Shown: piece by piece, positions 414 to 26,720 of the stretch
Layout of the letters: the number at the start of each line of letters is the position of its first letter
Numbering within the stretch: the stretch's first letter is position 1
Assembly (NCBI GenBank): GCA_016177165.1
Contig: JACOVT010000038.1
Coordinates: 1-26,805 of the forward strand
From: Candidatus Micrarchaeota archaeon
GTDB lineage: Archaea; B1Sed10-29; JACOVT01
DNA length: 26,805 nt
Direction: 5' to 3'
Notes under the pieces: generated by a model
Seen by the model: only the letters and a program-made list of their open reading frames with translations
Database searches by the model: none
What the model was told of the DNA's origin: nothing
Translations under genes and position numbers: made by a program

Positions 414-3164
414 CTAGCGGTAGCGCAGCAGCGCCCCTATCCCGCCGAAGCCTTGGAGGAACTGTTTCCCTTCAGCAGTTTCGGTAGAAATAATCTCTAT
501 GCTCGCGCCCGAAGATTCGGCGAGCTGGGTCAACTCTTCCATCAGCTCGGTGTCAGACTCCACCGACTGTTTTCCGCCGCAGTGGCAGCGGTAATCGCTA
601 TCGATTTCCTTGACCACACTCTCCACGATTTTGCCACAGTTGTTGCACTTTAACAGCAGCTTGCGCATCGCCAGCTCCTCCGAAAGCAATAGAATGTCAG
701 CCTTCCGCAACTCGAGCGCTTTGCGCGTCTCTTCCTCGCCGTAGCAGGCCAGCCCGCTCGTCACGACCTCCTTCAGGAAGCGGTTGACGAGGTCCCGCTC
801 TTTGGTTATTTCCATCTTTTCAATGACCTCATCGGCGTGCTCCACCAATTCCTTGATGCCCGTCTCATCAGTATAGCCGGTGTCGACCGTCCCGCGTATC
901 TTGTTCTTGACTTCGGTCTGGAGGTACTCGCCGTTGATGAAGTCGTACTTTGTCGGGCCCGACCCGCCCGCAATGATGGCCTTGATTTTCTTGTCGGAGA
1001 ACACACCATTGCACGCATCGCCAATTCTCTTGAAGAACTCGTGCACGGCTATCTCGTGAAGCCGCTGGAAACGCATAGCACTATTGTGAAGCATGAATCC
1101 GTTTGCCACGTATGACTCTTGCCTTGGTACGTTCAGGTCGCAGAACAGGATTCCATCGGGCTCGATTTTTTGCTTTTCCACCACATATGATGGTATCAGG
1201 TCTGAATCTAGTACTTGCCTGAGGAACAGGACAATCTCTTTGCATTCGGCTGACTTTTGCGGGTCTGTTTTTTCAAGCACGCGCTGCCAGTTCTCGAACT
1301 CCCTTAAGATGACCCGTTTGAACACCTTGCGCCCCATCGAGCGCTCGTTCCTGAAGAAATTGTTGCCAGTCCGGAACGAGCGGGTGTTGAGGCCCACCTG
1401 CCTAGCCAGCCTTAGCACGTGGCTGCCGCTCATTGGAATCTGGTCTATCCGCGAAGCCTCTTCACCCCTTCGCCTAATTTTACCAAACTTTTCGCGGCTC
1501 GTAAATCCGACAAATTTTATGAAATTGTTCAAGGAATCTTCATCGTTTATCTCAAGGCTGTATTGGAGTGAAGCGCTTTTGACTTTCCAGTTTGGCGGCG
1601 AGATCTTTTCCCTGAAGGAGGTTACGATGCCGAGCCTCAACAGCATCATCCTGAGCTGTTCCATTAGTTTCTTGCTGGTCGTGGTTATGCCTATCCTTCC
1701 AGAGCGTGATTGCACGTAACCTTCCGCGTCGAACAAGCCACGCGCAAACGCTGCAACAATGCTGTTTGGGGACCGCATTGCTGATACTGGGACTTCTGCG
1801 AGGGCGCTTGGCAGCAGGGCCTCGCCGAACTTGTCACGAATGATACCCGCGAGCTCCTTGCAGCAGATAGTTAGCTGGTAGTAGTTTTTACGCGGGTTAT
1901 GCCTTATCACCCCAACCAAGCCTAATGTTAATGCTATCCTTTTGTACTCGTCGAGAACTTCCTTGCGTTCATCATAGAGGCGGATTCTGTGTTCCTCCAC
2001 GCACCCATCGCCGATGGTGTAGCCTAGCAGCTGGGCAAACTCCTCGTCAAGGTATTCAGGCATTTTGAACGTTTTCGCATTCCTGACGTATCTCTCATGG
2101 AACAGCCCCTTGTCAATGCCGTAAATCTCCAACAGCTTGTTGATCTTTTCAAAGCCGATCTTGCCAATGCCGAGCTCGACCTTTGAAAGCGTTGCCTGCG
2201 CAATGCCGAGTTTCTTTGCCACTTCTCGTTGAAGCAGCCGCTTCTCGACGCGCTGGGTAGCCAGGTGTTTGCGTCCTTCTTCCGTTAGTTCGGGGGTCGG
2301 CAGTATTTTCAGGCCAAGAGGTATTCGTTTGCCTTCAAAGTTTATTCTCTTGACCGCCATGATGGTGTCTCCCTTGGCTAACTCGCCGGCGCTTTTCAAC
2401 CCAAGGCCGCGGCCATCCAGGCTAAAGAACCAGTGTTCAGGGGTTGCCACTATCCTGGCTGACGGGTATTTTGTCCTTATGAGGTATGCACTATCTGATT
2501 TTCTCTTGAACACTTTTGCGCATTCTGCCATTGTTGTCTGATAAGTTGACTGACTAACCGAGCAAACGCGGCCAAGGGGGGCTTTTCCAATCTGGCACAC
2601 CGCACCGTCGCCAAGCTGGATGAGGGAATCGCTTGCAATGCACTGACCGCCGACGTGGTGTTTTCCCGGTATGCCTGACGTCAGTTTTCGCAGTATGTCT
2701 ACCTTCTTGCCGTGGAGAGTGGCGACGATGGCTTCCCGCTTGTCCAACACGAACAGCCCGAACGTCTCCTTGTGTTCGATCATCTCCTCAAACGGCTTGG
2801 TGAAAAACGCGGAGTCGCACCGGTAGATCGAGAGCGGCACGGGCTCTGGAGGGACGAGCATGTACTGCTCTATCTTGCCGTTGATGCTGCCGCAATAAAT
2901 CGCAACGCCGTTCTCCGGGGGTTTGGGCACCCCCTTTATCGCTCCCATAATGCTCTCCAGCGCGGACTGCACGTTCTTGCGGGTCTGCTTGGACTTGATG
3001 TTCATCGCCTGCGACGCCTCTTCTCTCAGGCGGTTGGCCACATCGGCAACGTTGGCTCCAGGTGGAATGAGCACGCTGATCAACTCGGTTCCCTCGCCGC
3101 GGATCGACTGCAGGAAGCGCAGTTTCTTCTTGAACTCGAAGAACTCTTTCGAATCGGTCTGCAT
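414..3164 (-). CDS. prf1: Peptide chain release factor aRF1 (archaeal eRF1), intein-containing precursor (916 aa; about 396 aa after splicing)
   Basis: Motifs: GTELIS, A.NIKSKQTRKNV (NIKS), Y.CD..F, GKHHVGGQ|SAMRF (GGQS once the intein is removed), a C-terminal CxxC...CxC insert and GFGGIGALLRY. Start set at ATG 3164 (MQTDSKEFFEFKK) because 3251 would overlap the divergent pyrH. Confidence 0.95.
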   Translation of the reverse strand: MQTDSKEFFEFKKKLRFLQSIRGEGTELISVLIPPGANVADVANRLREEASQAMNIKSKQTRKNVQSALESIMGAIKGVPKPPENGVAIYCGSINGKIEQYMLVPPEPVPLSIYRCDSAFFTKPFEEMIEHKETFGLFVLDKREAIVATLHGKKVDILRKLTSGIPGKHHVGGQCIASDSLIQLGDGAVCQIGKAPLGRVCSVSQSTYQTTMAECAKVFKRKSDSAYLIRTKYPSARIVATPEHWFFSLDGRGLGLKSAGELAKGDTIMAVKRINFEGKRIPLGLKILPTPELTEEGRKHLATQRVEKRLLQREVAKKLGIAQATLSKVELGIGKIGFEKINKLLEIYGIDKGLFHERYVRNAKTFKMPEYLDEEFAQLLGYTIGDGCVEEHRIRLYDERKEVLDEYKRIALTLGLVGVIRHNPRKNYYQLTICCKELAGIIRDKFGEALLPSALAEVPVSAMRSPNSIVAAFARGLFDAEGYVQSRSGRIGITTTSKKLMEQLRMMLLRLGIVTSFREKISPPNWKVKSASLQYSLEINDEDSLNNFIKFVGFTSREKFGKIRRRGEEASRIDQIPMSGSHVLRLARQVGLNTRSFRTGNNFFRNERSMGRKVFKRVILREFENWQRVLEKTDPQKSAECKEIVLFLRQVLDSDLIPSYVVEKQKIEPDGILFCDLNVPRQESYVANGFMLHNSAMRFQRLHEIAVHEFFKRIGDACNGVFSDKKIKAIIAGGSGPTKYDFINGEYLQTEVKNKIRGTVDTGYTDETGIKELVEHADEVIEKMEITKERDLVNRFLKEVVTSGLACYGEEETRKALELRKADILLLSEELAMRKLLLKCNNCGKIVESVVKEIDSDYRCHCGGKQSVESDTELMEELTQLAESSGASIEIISTETAEGKQFLQGFGGIGALLRYR
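1083..2642 (-). mobile_element. Intein (520 aa) with LAGLIDADG homing endonuclease and XRE-type HTH, inserted between Q and S of GGQ|S
   Basis: Starts at Cys1 (TGC 2642-2640, CIASDSLI). Block B ATPEHWFF, LAGLIDADG motifs LLGYTIGDG and FARGLFDAEG, block F/G FCDLNVP...YVANGFMLHN (AAT 1085-1083), and Ser at +1. Confidence 0.95.
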
Positions 3165-3166
3165 GG

Positions 3167-3196
3167 GTTTTTTAAAGCTGGCGGAGGTTAAAAAAC
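3167..3196. promoter_or_regulatory. Back-to-back TATA elements of the divergent prf1/pyrH promoters, forming a 9-bp inverted repeat
   Basis: GTTTTTTAA (3167-3175), 12 nt, then TTAAAAAAC (3188-3196), inside a 40-bp intergenic gap. Each A/T run lies about 24-30 nt upstream of the start codon it points to. Confidence 0.6.
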
Positions 3197-3204
3197 AGGT
3201 ATAC

Positions 3205-3876
3205 ATGCGCTTGGTTCTGTCGCTGGGCGGCTCGATGGTGTTTGACGGCAAGCCGCGCGTCGACTACATACGCAAAGTCGCCTCGCTGGTCACAGGCCTC
3301 AAAGCCACCGTCGGAGTAATAGTGGGTGGCGGGACGGCCGCGCGCGACTACATAGCCGCAGCAAAGGAGTTCGGCGAGGACAACTTCGACCTCGACTGGC
3401 TGGCCACGACCGTCACTTGGGCCAACGCCCGCTTGTGCGCGCCCGCCTTCGGGGGCAGGTTCTTCTACTCCATAGAGGATGCGGGTGAGTGGCTCCTCTC
3501 TGCGCCGGGCCGCACCGCGCTGCTCGGCGGGACCCACCCAAACCAGACCACTGACACAGTGGGCGCAATGCTTTCCGAGAAGATAGGCGCTGACCGCTGG
3601 GTGAACCTTTCCAACGTGGCGGCAGTGTACGACAAGGACCCCAAGAAGTTCCGGGACGCCCGCAAGTTTTCAACAATGACCCATCAGGAACTCGTCCAGC
3701 TTGCCACGGGGCTGGACAAGCGCGGTCCGGGCGAGAACTTCATAATAGACACGCCCGCCGCGCGCGTGCTCGCCCGTTCGAACATCGAGGCCCACTTCGT
3801 CAACGGCAGCGACCTGTCACAAGTCCGGCTGGCACTGCAGGGCAAGCGCCATGATGGAACGGTTGTCAAGGGCTAG
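3205..3876 (+). CDS. pyrH: Uridylate kinase (archaeal type, 223 aa)
   Basis: MRLVLSLGGS, IVGGGTAARDYI, GGTHPNQTTD, NLSNVAAVYDKDPKKF, HDGTVV. Start at ATG 3205; the longer 2923 ORF runs antisense into prf1. Confidence 0.93.
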   Translation: MRLVLSLGGSMVFDGKPRVDYIRKVASLVTGLKATVGVIVGGGTAARDYIAAAKEFGEDNFDLDWLATTVTWANARLCAPAFGGRFFYSIEDAGEWLLSAPGRTALLGGTHPNQTTDTVGAMLSEKIGADRWVNLSNVAAVYDKDPKKFRDARKFSTMTHQELVQLATGLDKRGPGENFIIDTPAARVLARSNIEAHFVNGSDLSQVRLALQGKRHDGTVVKG

Positions 3877-8082: not shown

Positions 8083-8988
8083 CTAGCCCATGACCAGCCA
8101 CGTCCCGGCAAATATGAGCACCGCGGCCGCGGCCTTGAGGGCCAGCGTGCGTCGGTCGAACTCCTCCTTGAGCAGGTGGGGGAAAAAGCGCGTGAAGCCC
8201 ACAAGCACGAATATGAGTATGATCGGCTGGATCGCCGAGATAGAGATCACTACCGAGGCGGATGCGAGCTTGAACGCCTCGTAGGTGGCGAATGCTATTA
8301 TTACCTCGAGCGTTGACATGAGCACCACGACTGCGGTCCAGCTGTGTGGGGTTCCGTGCATCTCGCGCCTGAATGTTTGGAGAATGCTGGGAACGAGCAG
8401 CATTGCAAGCAGGGCGGCAGTTCCGGATCCGAGCGTCCAGAAGATGACGCTGGCCGGCTCGAACACGCCGATTATTGACTTGGTGTAGACCAGGTAGCCT
8501 CCCCAAATGATGTTTCGCACGATCATTATTGGAAGCACTTTCGAGACCCTGCCGTTTCTGTTTTTCTTGCGCGACTCCGAGTGCCTGTATGAGGCTGCCA
8601 AGGCGCTGATGGTGAGCAGGCCTATCCCGGCGTAGACGTGGAGGGCGAGCGCCTCGCCCAAAAAGATTGCTGACAGTATTGCCGTGAAAACCGGCAGCGT
8701 GTAAACAAGGGAGACGACGCGGCTGGCCTCCTCGTTTTTCATCGAGTAGTACCACATGTAGCTGACAATCGCTTCCAGCACCCCGAAGACGGCCAGAATG
8801 GAGATTATGGTGGTGTCTGTTTTGATTGGAAGCAGCAGCGGGATTGCCAGCAGGGCTGGTATGCCAGCGGCATAGTACGCTATCTGGTATGTCAGCGGGC
8901 TGATCTTCCTAGAAATCAGTATTTTGTTTGCCGTGTTAACAACGGCATACAAGAGCGGCCGCACCAATGCAAGCAAAAACCAATTCAT
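8083..8988 (-). CDS. EamA/DMT-family transporter (301 aa)
   Basis: About 10 hydrophobic segments in two repeats; 'EEASRVVSL..TLPVFTAILSAIFLGEAL' and the C-terminal 'FF...KEEF...ALK..AAVLIFAG' are typical of DMT proteins. Confidence 0.85.
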   Translation of the reverse strand: MNWFLLALVRPLLYAVVNTANKILISRKISPLTYQIAYYAAGIPALLAIPLLLPIKTDTTIISILAVFGVLEAIVSYMWYYSMKNEEASRVVSLVYTLPVFTAILSAIFLGEALALHVYAGIGLLTISALAASYRHSESRKKNRNGRVSKVLPIMIVRNIIWGGYLVYTKSIIGVFEPASVIFWTLGSGTAALLAMLLVPSILQTFRREMHGTPHSWTAVVVLMSTLEVIIAFATYEAFKLASASVVISISAIQPIILIFVLVGFTRFFPHLLKEEFDRRTLALKAAAAVLIFAGTWLVMG

Positions 8989-9001
8989 CGTTACACACCA
9001 T

Positions 9002-9017
9002 TTTTGGTCAAGCTTTT
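9002..9017. repeat. Intergenic TTTTGGTCAAGCTTTT motif; second copy inside the tRNA-Trp intron (9169-9184)
   Basis: TTTTGGTCAAGCTTTT versus TTTTGGTAAAGCTTTT, 15/16 identical. Confidence 0.6.
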
Positions 9018-9101
9018 TTCAAGACAGGCACGACAGCGATCATGCCTTAATAGTGAAAAAGGTTGGTGGGGTCACTGGGATTTGAACCCAGACTGTTAGG
9101 T

Positions 9102-9286
9102 TTCGCCAATATCATTCCGCGCGAGCGCGGTCAGCGCTCCAGAGATTGTTCCGCGAAGACGCAAGCGCTTTTGGTAAAGCTTTTCTCGACCAAGGAGCGT
9201 CATCGGAGAAGCAAAGCTTCTCCGTGATCTCGACGAAGCTCTGCTTCGTCGCAGACGCAAGCGCGACTTCATAGCGGAAAAGGTTT
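9102..9286 (-). ncRNA. tRNA-Trp intron with a box C/D-like guide for 2'-O-methylation of C34
   Basis: Box D CTGA (9134-9131) is preceded by UCUGGAGC, complementary to pre-tRNA GCUCCAGA (9293-9286); the D-5 nucleotide pairs with C34. C'-like GATGACG at 9204-9198 and a degenerate C-like TATGAAG near 9273-9267. Intron-encoded C/D guides in tRNA-Trp are established for euryarchaea. Confidence 0.65.
9204..9251. repeat. Pair of GAAGC-N3-GCTTC hairpins inside the tRNA-Trp intron
   Basis: CGGAGAAGC-AAA-GCTTCTCCG (9204-9224) and CGACGAAGC-TCT-GCTTCGTCG (9231-9251), both perfect 9-bp stems. Confidence 0.85.
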
Positions 9287-9350
9287 CTGGAGCCTAACGT
9301 GCTGCCAGGTTACACCATAACCCCGCTGCTTGGATTATGTCTTACAGCGA

Positions 9351-9356
9351 TTTAAA
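9351..9356 (-). promoter_or_regulatory. TATA box of tRNA-Trp
   Basis: TTTAAA 27-32 nt upstream of the tRNA 5' end (9324). An equivalent TTTAAA (15257-15262) precedes tRNA-Arg. Confidence 0.6.
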
Positions 9357-9359
9357 GCC

Positions 9360-9848
9360 CTATTTTAACCACACGGCATTGGTGTCCTTTGCCTCATAGA
9401 ACGAGAAGAACGTGAGCGTCCTGCCGACTTCTGGCGCGTTCCAAAGCGTGTCCACCACCCACGAGCCGATCTCGCGCTCGTTTGCTCCGCGCACCTTTAG
9501 TATGACGTCCCACTCGCCGGTAACCACATGGGCTTCCTCCACTTCTGGTAGTTGGGCGAGAGAATCGCCGATGTTTTTTGGTTTGATCCTGTCTCGCTTT
9601 GAGAACGGCCTCGGCACCCGCCTGACCAACACGAATGCAGTTGTCGGCATGCCTACCTTGTAGTGGTCCACTATTGCCGAGAATCCCTTGATTATTCCGG
9701 TTTCCACAAGCTTCCTGATCCGCTGGTGGACTGTCGTCGCAGGCATCTTGAGCTTGCGTCCCAATTCTCTCGTTGACTGCCTGCAGTTCTTCTGCAGTTC
9801 TTCCAGTATGGTCTTATCAGCCTCATCTAAATTGTACAAAAATATCAC
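9360..9848 (-). CDS. Lrp/AsnC-family transcriptional regulator (162 aa)
   Basis: LDEADKTILEELQKNCR.S.RELG..L......VHQRIRKL...GII.GF HTH, followed by the RAM domain 'PEVEEAHVVTGEWDVILKV...V.RTLT'. Confidence 0.92.
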   Translation of the reverse strand: MIFLYNLDEADKTILEELQKNCRQSTRELGRKLKMPATTVHQRIRKLVETGIIKGFSAIVDHYKVGMPTTAFVLVRRVPRPFSKRDRIKPKNIGDSLAQLPEVEEAHVVTGEWDVILKVRGANEREIGSWVVDTLWNAPEVGRTLTFFSFYEAKDTNAVWLK

Positions 9849-15089: not shown

Positions 15090-15233
15090 TGGCGGGCCTG
15101 GAGGGATTCGAACCCCCGACCACCGGCTCTCTCCAGTTTTCCCAGGTTTTTCCCGACTTGCGAGCGCAAGCGAGCGACACCGCGGAAAAAGCTGTAGGAC
15201 GCCGCTGCTCTATCCAGGCTGAGCTACAGGCCC
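15090..15233 (-). tRNA. trnR: tRNA-Arg(CCT), CCA-encoded, with a 66-nt intron at 37/38 (15129-15194); atypical G32 and G27-G43
   Basis: GGGCCTG/CAGGCCC acceptor, D-arm GCTC-AGCCTGGATA-GAGC, anticodon CCT (15198-15196), T-arm GGGGG-TTCGAAT-CCCTC, GCCA end, BHB-like bulges TA|C and AG|A. Confidence 0.85.
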
Positions 15234-26640: not shown

Positions 26641-26720
26641 AGAAGAAGCCTAGCTTCTTCTGTGCAGAGGAAGCTTGGCTTCCTCAAGCACCTTGTACTT
26701 TTCTTTTCTAAAAAGAAAAG
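26641..26720. repeat. Intergenic cluster of three 3-nt-loop hairpins; the T-rich third hairpin may act as a terminator
   Basis: AGAAGAAGC-CTA-GCTTCTTCT (26641-26661), GAGGAAGC-TTG-GCTTCCTC (26667-26685), CTTTTCTTTT-CTA-AAAAGAAAAG (26698-26720). Confidence 0.8.

Follow-up and report, generated by a model that had tools for sequence, protein, structure and literature searches.

The window analysed here, by which we mean the whole 26,805-nt stretch of contig JACOVT010000038.1 from the Candidatus Micrarchaeota assembly GCA_016177165.1, carries on its minus strand a tRNA-Trp(CCA) gene with a 185-nt intron, which is probably a composite of a conserved single-guide module of the box C/D small RNA (C/D sRNA) type and an inserted repeat specific to this genome. 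The module, predicted to direct 2'-O-methylation of the anticodon nucleotide C34 (giving Cm34), recurs in tRNA-Trp introns of related archaea with compensatory changes in its stem, and its guide is unchanged in a co-occurring allele that has diverged by roughly 20%. The repeat has about 19 matching loci elsewhere in the genome, and 60 nt of it are absent from the same allele. Both parts of this picture, a guide reduced to the single target C34 and an intron enlarged by repeat insertions, had been proposed in a preliminary description made from the letters of the window, and both are borne out by the comparisons below.

The DNA comes from groundwater metagenomes, and the window is one of the 108 contigs (C105) of an 847-kb assembly that is 79% complete; judged by the Dph2 protein encoded in the window, its nearest named relatives are metagenome-assembled genomes of Candidatus Micrarchaeota. 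The closest comparison genomes were 17 from the same order (none from the same family), within a class set of 31, to which a phylum-wide search for the guide module contributed no further genomes. Contigs of the genome under study are labelled C, comparison genomes G, families f, loci L and metagenome runs X1-X4. Precursor positions, p1-261, equal 9325 minus the window coordinate, and the coordinates of all features are collected in Table 1.

The interrupted tRNA-Trp gene and its predicted guide module

With introns allowed, ARAGORN reports tRNA-Trp(CCA) at c[9064,9324] with a 185-nt intron, whose interval (9102-9286) agrees exactly with the preliminary description and with a splice site at 37/38; all four stems of the cloverleaf are intact in the spliced tRNA. 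The gene was missed by the default ARAGORN scan, by the Rfam tRNA model run on the window and by a whole-genome Rfam search, and an Rfam search with the intron itself returned no family at E <= 10 apart from chance matches. That standard finders miss this gene and mislabel many other tRNAs of the genome matters for the annotation of DPANN archaea. The exon-intron junctions form the bulge-helix-bulge (BHB) structure in a relaxed form, with three pairs and a U.C mismatch in the central helix and 3-nt bulges A36-G37|A and A-A|A38. Splicing machinery is encoded in the genome in the form of two genes with EndA domains (C33, C41) and RtcB (C14).

The guide module occupies the 3' quarter of the intron. 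Its guide is an 8-bp perfect complement of G31-A38 (9143-9136 against 9286-9293), and a single G separates it from CUGA, so that the nucleotide paired with C34 is the fifth one upstream of box D. This antisense and its register had been described correctly; the closing hairpin behind box D and the box C-like AAUGAUA (9116..9110), which complete the module, had been overlooked. By sequence, the geometry fits a kink-turn (K-turn), with the stem starting right after box D and the opposite strand presenting a 3-nt bulge followed by the tandem GA. A guide of at least 6 bp in register with CUGA appeared in 2 of 20,000 shuffles of the intron. Between the intron and the mature tRNA no Watson-Crick duplex of at least 6 bp exists other than that of the C34 guide; there is therefore no guide for position 39, in keeping with the earlier finding that the 3' exon has no antisense in the intron and that position 39 is C. 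The 8 nt between box C and the 3' splice site leave no space for a second guide. The proteins that such a module would need are encoded as L7Ae (C101:5679-5957), Nop5 (C27:7909-8586) and fibrillarin (C37:3265-3900), all scoring above the Pfam cut-offs.

Four further families of the order, and the distant DPANN genome G039, have the same arrangement of guide, box D, hairpin and box C in their tRNA-Trp introns. Searched as the pattern GGAGC(G/U)-CUGA-hairpin-(A/G)AUGAU, it gives one tRNA-Trp match per genome and none in reversed controls; one extra match, in G007, lies outside any tRNA and is probably coding sequence. GGAGC, CUGA and AUGA are invariant across the aligned relatives, whose Trp introns retain GGAGC(G/U) together with CUGA. 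The closing stem has a different sequence in each lineage and its pairing is always kept: GCC/GGC in the 62-nt intron of G004 (f5), GCA/UGC in the 47-nt intron of G006 (f7), GCGC/GCGC in the 73-nt intron of G003 (f4) and GCAA/UUGC in G002, G016 and G017 (f3), the first pair being C:G in the window and G:C elsewhere. The 215-nt intron of G039 (f21) has a short, K-loop-like loop at this place. This covariation was tabulated by hand, MAFFT being unable to align the variable-length hairpins column by column. Farther away, the Trp intron of the more distant archaeon G041 (L024) is a canonical C-D'-C'-D RNA with guides to positions 34 and 39, and in family f10, of the same class as the window genome, the order is guide39-CUGA-stem-AUGACGA-guide34. 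To judge from these sequences, the C34 guide seems to be the only one retained by the order to which the window genome belongs. Within the window genome the module has no paralog by BLAST, and a scan for D-hairpin-C arrangements gave only the tRNA-Trp module above chance.

A 204-nt contig of run X1 represents a variant allele of the tRNA-Trp gene, about 88% identical to that in the window. Across the 98 aligned intron nucleotides 9102-9199 it has 18 differing positions and two indels, and guide and box D are without change. Its closing hairpin shows a C to U change giving a U.G pair, and the loop of this hairpin carries an insertion of 3 nt; in box C only the U.U position is altered, and GGAG in the BHB produces a perfect central helix.

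In the unconstrained minimum free energy (MFE) fold of the precursor (-111 kcal/mol, z = -5.2) the guide pairs in cis with the anticodon loop, and UUCCGC (9274-9279), extended by GAAG/CUUC, pairs with GCGGAA at 9149-9154, closing an insert of about 130 nt as a separate domain. A fold made to contain the cloverleaf together with the K-turn hairpin lies 1 kcal/mol higher. With the cloverleaf and the BHB imposed, the energy is -102.1 kcal/mol, 9 above the MFE, and UUCCGC then pairs with GCGGAA at 9115-9120. This latter pairing is the basal stem TTCCGC/GCGGAA of the preliminary description and acts as inner helix of the BHB; its 5' strand has two possible partners. By these model energies the cis guide-anticodon duplex and the BHB splicing fold are real structural alternatives; from the work on Haloferax pre-tRNA-Trp, competition between guide-target and splicing folds is reportedly to be expected for such introns.

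Some neighbouring observations concern tRNA-Trp and tRNA-Arg(CCU) in the relatives. In f3 tRNA-Trp apparently has, besides the guide-bearing intron, a second one in the T-arm region (L031 and L033, of G016 and G002). The tRNA-Arg(CCU) introns of f10 (61-67 nt; L003 and L008, G021 and G027) resemble canonical C/D sRNAs, with the boxes GAUGA...CUGA...AUGAUGA. The Arg(CCU) gene lies directly upstream of the Trp gene in several relatives and 6 kb away from it here.

A tRNA-associated repeat family and the growth of the intron

The 5' part of the intron, p39-160, is without a counterpart in the short orthologous introns of the relatives. As a single-sequence nhmmer query it gave 15 other matches (E = 1.6e-8 to 1.5e-3), and one profile round brought these to about 19 other loci in the genome, with matches on C15, C88, C26, C35, C19, C14, C11, C71, C1, C41, C79 and C72. 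At least 13 of the 19 lie inside tRNA genes or within 100 nt of them, and several others are at contig ends. A D-loop intron in a tRNA on C88 aligns colinearly with the segment over about 120 nt, and the stretch immediately following the tRNA-Met on C15 is colinear with it as well; by its similarity to other tRNA introns of its own genome the segment belongs to a family of transposed, or paralogous, tRNA introns. In this family a core hairpin and then GUCGAGAAAAA... lie between a 5' arm, RRCYUUUUYCCGC, and a 3' arm that is complementary to it. The tRNA genes of this genome are heavily interrupted in general, about 20 of the 26 ARAGORN calls containing introns of up to 199 nt, and many of these introns are members of the family.

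Inside the core hairpin of the intron sits a second, smaller element, a twin module of the form TCTG-hairpin-AGATCT-hairpin-CAGA. Its two hairpins (9204-9224 and 9231-9251, perfect, 9 bp each) had been seen earlier, and the twin module is separable; their membership in a genome-wide tRNA-associated family and the recurrence of such enlargement in other lineages had gone unnoticed. Perfect hairpins with a GAAGC/GCUUC or CGAAC/GUUCG apex number 34-50 in the genome, mostly in pairs 6 nt apart within the larger dyad of the form given above, with nested copies on C71 and C1. For the string GAAGC-N3/4-GCTTC the count is 32, compared with 3 for the reversed control and 0-14 in 30 relatives, and this abundance is a lineage-specific burst. 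The variant allele of run X1 skips exactly 9200-9259 (60 nt) and has CGC in its place, which restores a plain GCGC-loop-GCGC core hairpin like that of the tRNA-Ser intron on C1. The twin module must hence have been inserted into the loop of the core hairpin, or been lost from it, and is dispensable. The exact 12-mer direct repeat reported previously (9157-9168 and 9253-9264) is present and extends to 20 nt at 85% identity. As the repeat spans the junction of the module, and as the second copy of the repeat is changed at 5 of 12 positions in the variant, we read it as a by-product of duplication or conversion between pieces of repeats and not as a functional element.

A search of the genome, 79% complete as it is, found no reverse transcriptase and no transposase that could be tied to the repeats. 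A link to a transposase of the RAYT type (associated with repetitive extragenic palindromes, REP) was likewise not found in it: its single Y1 transposase gene (C54:11303-11665, minus strand), of the IS200/IS605 type, contains a TGA in frame near its start and lacks family hairpins in its vicinity. The hairpin that stands beside this gene is a different one, not of the GAAGC family.

Comparable enlargement is seen in two other lineages. G039 belongs to a different class and is 98% complete; for the 5' part of its 215-nt Trp intron, 20 further matching loci were found in the same genome, with identities of 81-92%. Of the 14 loci fetched, 5 lie within about 120 nt of tRNA genes, and the module of guide, box D, loop and box C stands at the 3' end of the intron, as in the window. 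In f10, Trp introns of 153 and 190 nt carry extra sequence inside the closing hairpin of the K-turn, and this sequence matches dispersed loci in G030 and G019. Together with the window, these cases indicate that in three lineages one and the same intron has grown by unrelated repeats, placed at permissive sites, and has retained its guide core; as far as the sequences can tell, the enlargement is independent in related lineages.

These observations suggest how the composite intron could have arisen. Its ancestral core would have been a tRNA-Trp intron of about 55 nt whose single-guide module ran from the guide through box D and the closing hairpin to box C. Boxes D and C would form one K-turn for L7Ae, upon which Nop5 and fibrillarin could 2'-O-methylate C34. 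They might act on the precursor in cis, the guide-anticodon duplex being its predicted ground state, or in trans by way of the intron after its excision and probable circularisation. A copy of the repeat unit, which otherwise resides in other tRNA introns and 3' flanks, would have been gained between the 5' splice site and the guide, and the twin palindromic-hairpin module would have landed later in the apical loop of this unit. The inserted 130 nt or so would make up a self-contained domain closed by UUCCGC/GCGGAA, so that the splice sites, the slightly relaxed BHB and the guide module stay together and the insert is tolerated as a passenger that is spliced out.

Competing explanations and known systems

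Several points weigh against the composite reading. Box C, AAUGAUA, carries an A for the consensus G, its sole departure from RUGAUGA, so that there is no pairing with the C of CUGA; the guide has a length of only 8 bp; and the central BHB helix of the precursor contains the U.C mismatch. Archaeal C/D ribonucleoproteins (RNPs) normally use two K-motifs, yet the intron has no C'/D' motif: CUGA is present once, and the only other GAUGA (p121-125) is repeat consensus and lacks a D partner. With a strict regular expression no canonical C-D'-C'-D sRNA was detected in the genome, for which reason the use of the C/D system here is deduced from the protein genes alone. The sequence search of the runs, which are DNA metagenomes only, found no RNA run containing the tRNA-Trp intron sequence. 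The neutrality of the insert is assumed, and the close linkage of such repeats to tRNA genes, seen in two phyla-level lineages, may point to a function. Two candidates for a second K-turn were considered and rejected, UUCCGC-UAU-GAAG / CUUC-GCGGAA having the 3-nt bulge but Watson-Crick pairs in place of the required G.A pairs, and CGAUGA at p120-125 having no box D partner.

The solitary K-turn without C'/D', the degenerate box C, the 8-bp guide and the failure to detect any other C/D sRNA would also fit an element that guides no methylation, be it a decaying relic or an L7Ae-dependent chaperone for the folding or splicing of the pre-tRNA, the more so as the cis duplex competes with the BHB fold. 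We regard this as quite unlikely, given that C34 stands exactly at D-5 in every lineage despite differing flanks and hairpins, that fibrillarin and Nop5 are retained in a 0.85-Mb genome, and that the arrangement matches the Cm34 guide of euryarchaeal tRNA-Trp introns, which according to the citations in PMC3326292 was demonstrated experimentally. Very improbable in our view is a further proposal of the preliminary description, that the guide is switchable, the internal CGCUCC (CGCTCC in the DNA, 9199-9194) pairing with GGAGCG of the guide, masking it and thereby turning methylation on and off. The hexamer is there, it is a 6-nt perfect complement of the guide and, with no differences over 9169-9199, it is kept in the variant allele. 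However, a 6-mer complement within 185 nt is not rare, and this one lies within the consensus of the repeat unit: it is also found in the C1 tRNA-Ser intron, with similar versions in C60 and C15, none of which has a guide, and it is absent from the short guide-bearing introns of G004, G006 and G003. None of the folds, whether MFE, centroid or constrained, pairs it with the guide. Hardly credible at all is an assembly artefact in which repeated hairpins led to a chimeric join within the tRNA gene. Many repeat copies do lie at contig ends, and depth is raised over 9228-9258, where the hairpin is common to other loci; but a single 9.7-kb contig of run X1 spans the region, contigs from three further samples agree with zero differences (over 8800-9151, 9159-9600, 8987-9218, 9226-9549 and 9116-9273), and the exons rebuild a perfect cloverleaf. 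All the covering samples are from one study, and X1 may itself be the source of the assembly.

The repeat could be more than a passenger. Its strong enrichment in and beside tRNA genes, which is seen here and, with unrelated sequences, in G039, the perfectly compensated stems with their conserved GAAGC/GCUUC apex, and the direct abutment of the unit on tRNA 3' ends at C15 and at window position 9063 would suit functional RNA or DNA elements of tRNA units, acting in processing, termination, protein binding or protection from integrating elements. This we consider unlikely, since the twin module is dispensable in a co-occurring strain, the burst in copy number is confined to this lineage, the sequences are not conserved between lineages, the nested insertions on C71 and C1 resemble parasitic spread, and perfect DNA palindromes, being the same on both strands, fit propagation at the DNA level. 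It is conceivable, though on balance doubtful, that the unit of about 120 nt and the twin module constitute a mobile element, still active, that has specialised in the transcription units of tRNAs, from introns at several positions to 3' trailers and flanks, and that spreads in a hairpin- or BHB-directed manner without a transposase of its own and is polymorphic in its presence between co-occurring strains; the DPANN tRNA-Trp intron would then be a recurrent landing pad, and the D-hairpin-C guide may act as an excised circular intron that tolerates cargo.

The composite intron has several known counterparts. The closest is the box C/D guide in the pre-tRNA-Trp intron of Euryarchaeota such as Haloferax volcanii (Clouet d'Orval 2001 and Singh 2004, as cited in PMC3326292 and PMC4090602), with which it shares the location at 37/38 of tRNA-Trp(CCA), an antisense to the anticodon loop that places C34 five nucleotides upstream of CUGA, C/D boxes predicted to form a K-turn, a host that encodes L7Ae, Nop5 and fibrillarin, and probably release as a circle by EndA and RtcB. 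Unlike the euryarchaeal intron it has one guide and none for position 39 (C here); its D and C boxes are adjacent via a closed hairpin, whereas those of the euryarchaeal intron lie at the intron ends with separate C'/D' boxes; its box C is AAUGAUA, its length 185 nt against some 60-105 nt with two thirds repeat-derived, and its host a DPANN archaeon (Micrarchaeota). The circularly permuted C/D sRNAs sR56 and sR57 of Pyrobaculum (PMC6009581) likewise have a box order permuted relative to 5'-C...D-3' and plausibly linked to circular RNA, but they are free-standing double-guide sRNAs, in contrast to a single predicted K-turn closed by a hairpin inside a tRNA intron. An intron-encoded Cm34 guide for tRNA-Trp is known in Euryarchaeota and suspected in Sulfolobus; the sequences compared here suggest that DPANN archaea with their reduced genomes have retained it, pared down to one hairpin-closed K-turn and one guide. 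If active, it would be a natural minimal "half-mer" C/D RNA and would bear on the number of K-motifs needed per archaeal C/D RNP.

On the side of the repeat, paralogous tRNA intron families are known from Thermoproteales (work of 2010, in the summary given in PMC4090602). Like these transposed introns, the family described here occurs with a broad-specificity endonuclease set-up (two EndA paralogs), but its unit also flanks complete tRNA genes on their 3' side and sits in other intergenic DNA, it has a separately mobile twin-hairpin module, and in the window it landed in a pre-existing functional intron instead of creating a new one. ARMAN-2, of the same phylum, also has highly disrupted tRNA genes, the majority being interrupted, with introns in the D-arm, T-arm and other positions (PMC3239211); its introns are short (examples of 13-25 nt) and its EndA is of the epsilon2 three-unit type, against repeat-built introns of 100-200 nt and two EndA-domain genes here. 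With bacterial REP, REPIN and BIME elements and the archaeal elements resembling miniature inverted-repeat transposable elements (sRNA relatives of this kind in Pyrobaculum, PMC6009581) the hairpins share short, perfect, often paired palindromes dispersed in non-coding DNA, lineage-specific bursts and nested insertions; they differ in having no associated RAYT, in their strong preference for tRNA introns and flanks and in the small size of the twin module, only about 57 nt. A tRNA intron can, as this locus shows, act as a safe harbour for lineage-specific repeats, one insertion being polymorphic in the source community, and the alleles with and without the insert offer a concrete system for studying how archaeal tRNA introns grow and move.

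Feature coordinates and further observations

Table 1. Coordinates of the tRNA-Trp locus, its intron elements and a neighbouring gene
Feature	Position	Strand	Basis
tRNA-Trp(CCA) gene, CCA encoded	9064..9324	minus	ARAGORN -i, cloverleaf checked
5' exon	9324..9287, p1-38	minus	ARAGORN, splice site 37/38
Intron, 185 nt, at 37/38	9286..9102, p39-223	minus	ARAGORN and splice site 37/38
3' exon with encoded CCA	9101..9064, p224-261	minus	ARAGORN
TTTAAAT, candidate TATA-box-like promoter element, ~29 nt upstream of tRNA position 1	9350..9356	minus	sequence inspection; inference
BHB 3' half: GGCG opposite C32-C35 (U33.C mismatch), then bulge A-A|A38	9101..9107	minus	sequence inspection
Guide UCUGGAGC, complementary to G31-A38	9143..9136	minus	8-bp perfect complement to 9286-9293
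Spacer G between guide and box D	9135	minus	sequence
Box D CUGA	9134..9131	minus	invariant in all aligned relatives
Closing hairpin CCGCG-CUCG-CGCGG, canonical stem of predicted K-turn, 5 bp	9130..9117	minus	covariation in relatives
Box C-like AAUGAUAU	9109..9116	minus	AUGA invariant in relatives; geometry by hand against K-turn numbering of PMC6009581
Box C parts: bulge A-A-U; tandem G-A; remainder U-A	9116..9114; 9113..9112; 9111..9110	minus	
UUCCGC, 5' strand closing the inserted domain; partner 9149-9154 (MFE) or 9115-9120 (inner helix h', BHB fold)	9274..9279	minus	
Genome-specific tRNA-associated repeat unit: 5' arm AAACCUUUUCCGC, core hairpin, twin hairpins, motif GUCGAGAAAAGCUUUACCAAAA	9165..9286, p39-160	minus	nhmmer, BLAST, colinear alignments
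Twin palindromic-hairpin module, indel polymorphism; hairpins 9231-9251 and 9204-9224, 6 nt apart	9200..9259	minus	X1 variant contig
Direct-repeat copy 1 GCGCUUGCGUCU, spanning junction of core hairpin and left end of twin module	9253..9264	minus	
Direct-repeat copy 2, just 3' of repeat unit; 5/12 nt changed in variant, not conserved	9157..9168	minus	
Short repeat-unit copy without twin hairpins, directly downstream of tRNA-Trp 3' end	8990..9063	minus	direct repeat D1, 79% over 24 nt; alignment
aRF1 gene with intein and LAGLIDADG homing endonuclease	414-3251	minus	Pfam

At the 3' end of the tRNA-Trp gene the sequence CACCA-ACC-UUUUU can pair with AAAAA-UGGUG about 60 nt downstream, forming a helix with a 3-nt bulge, and the run of five U may be a terminator. 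A reading of this 3' end and trailer as a half-BHB was rejected, the predicted cut not falling at the CCA end. Also rejected was GAGAAAAGCTTTACCAAAA as an internal promoter with a B recognition element and TATA box, which would have made the gene a cis-split tRNA, because the presumed promoters of this genome read TTTAAA(T/A) about 30 nt upstream (tRNA-Trp, 9356-9350, and an open reading frame on C15), because the distance of GAGAAAAGCTTTACCAAAA to downstream starts is inconsistent, and because the versions in D-loop introns have no TATA-like sequence.

The window contains two further sites related to the repeat family. At 15093-15233, on the minus strand, lies a tRNA that is Arg(CCU) by its anticodon loop (Phe in the ARAGORN label), with a 73-nt intron at 37/38 that belongs to the same family (AGCUUUUUCCGC..., core hairpin, then ...GGGAAAAACCUGGGAAAAC). 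Near the contig end, at 26641-26685, there is another twin-hairpin module (AGAAGAAGC.../GAGGAAGC..., 5 nt apart).

Elsewhere in the genome, D-loop introns of the family occur in many tRNAs, for example at C60:264-404, C84:11099-11282, C31:9231-9370 and C1:11335-11466, and the intron shows by eye a strict hBHBh' junction, ...UCUA-GG|A-GCUUUUUCC ... GGAAAAAGC-UGGA-AA|A.... ARAGORN places these D-loop introns in the anticodon loop and consequently assigns wrong anticodons. The gene at C88:1-215 (minus strand) is apparently a tRNA-Val(UAC) into whose D-loop and position 37/38 long introns of the family are set; the one at 37/38, within which the contig ends, starts almost identically to the Trp intron (AGCCUUUUCCGCUAUGAAGG). 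To see a triplex or mirror repeat in the purine-rich "middle" and "3' arm" segments of the family would be speculation. Finally, C19:11065-11153 and C36:441-532 are tRNA-like sequences with long variable arms and identical acceptor stems, for which ARAGORN gives the anticodons GAA and GUC; these are odd for type II tRNAs, and the two may possibly be mis-folded calls or unusual tRNAs.

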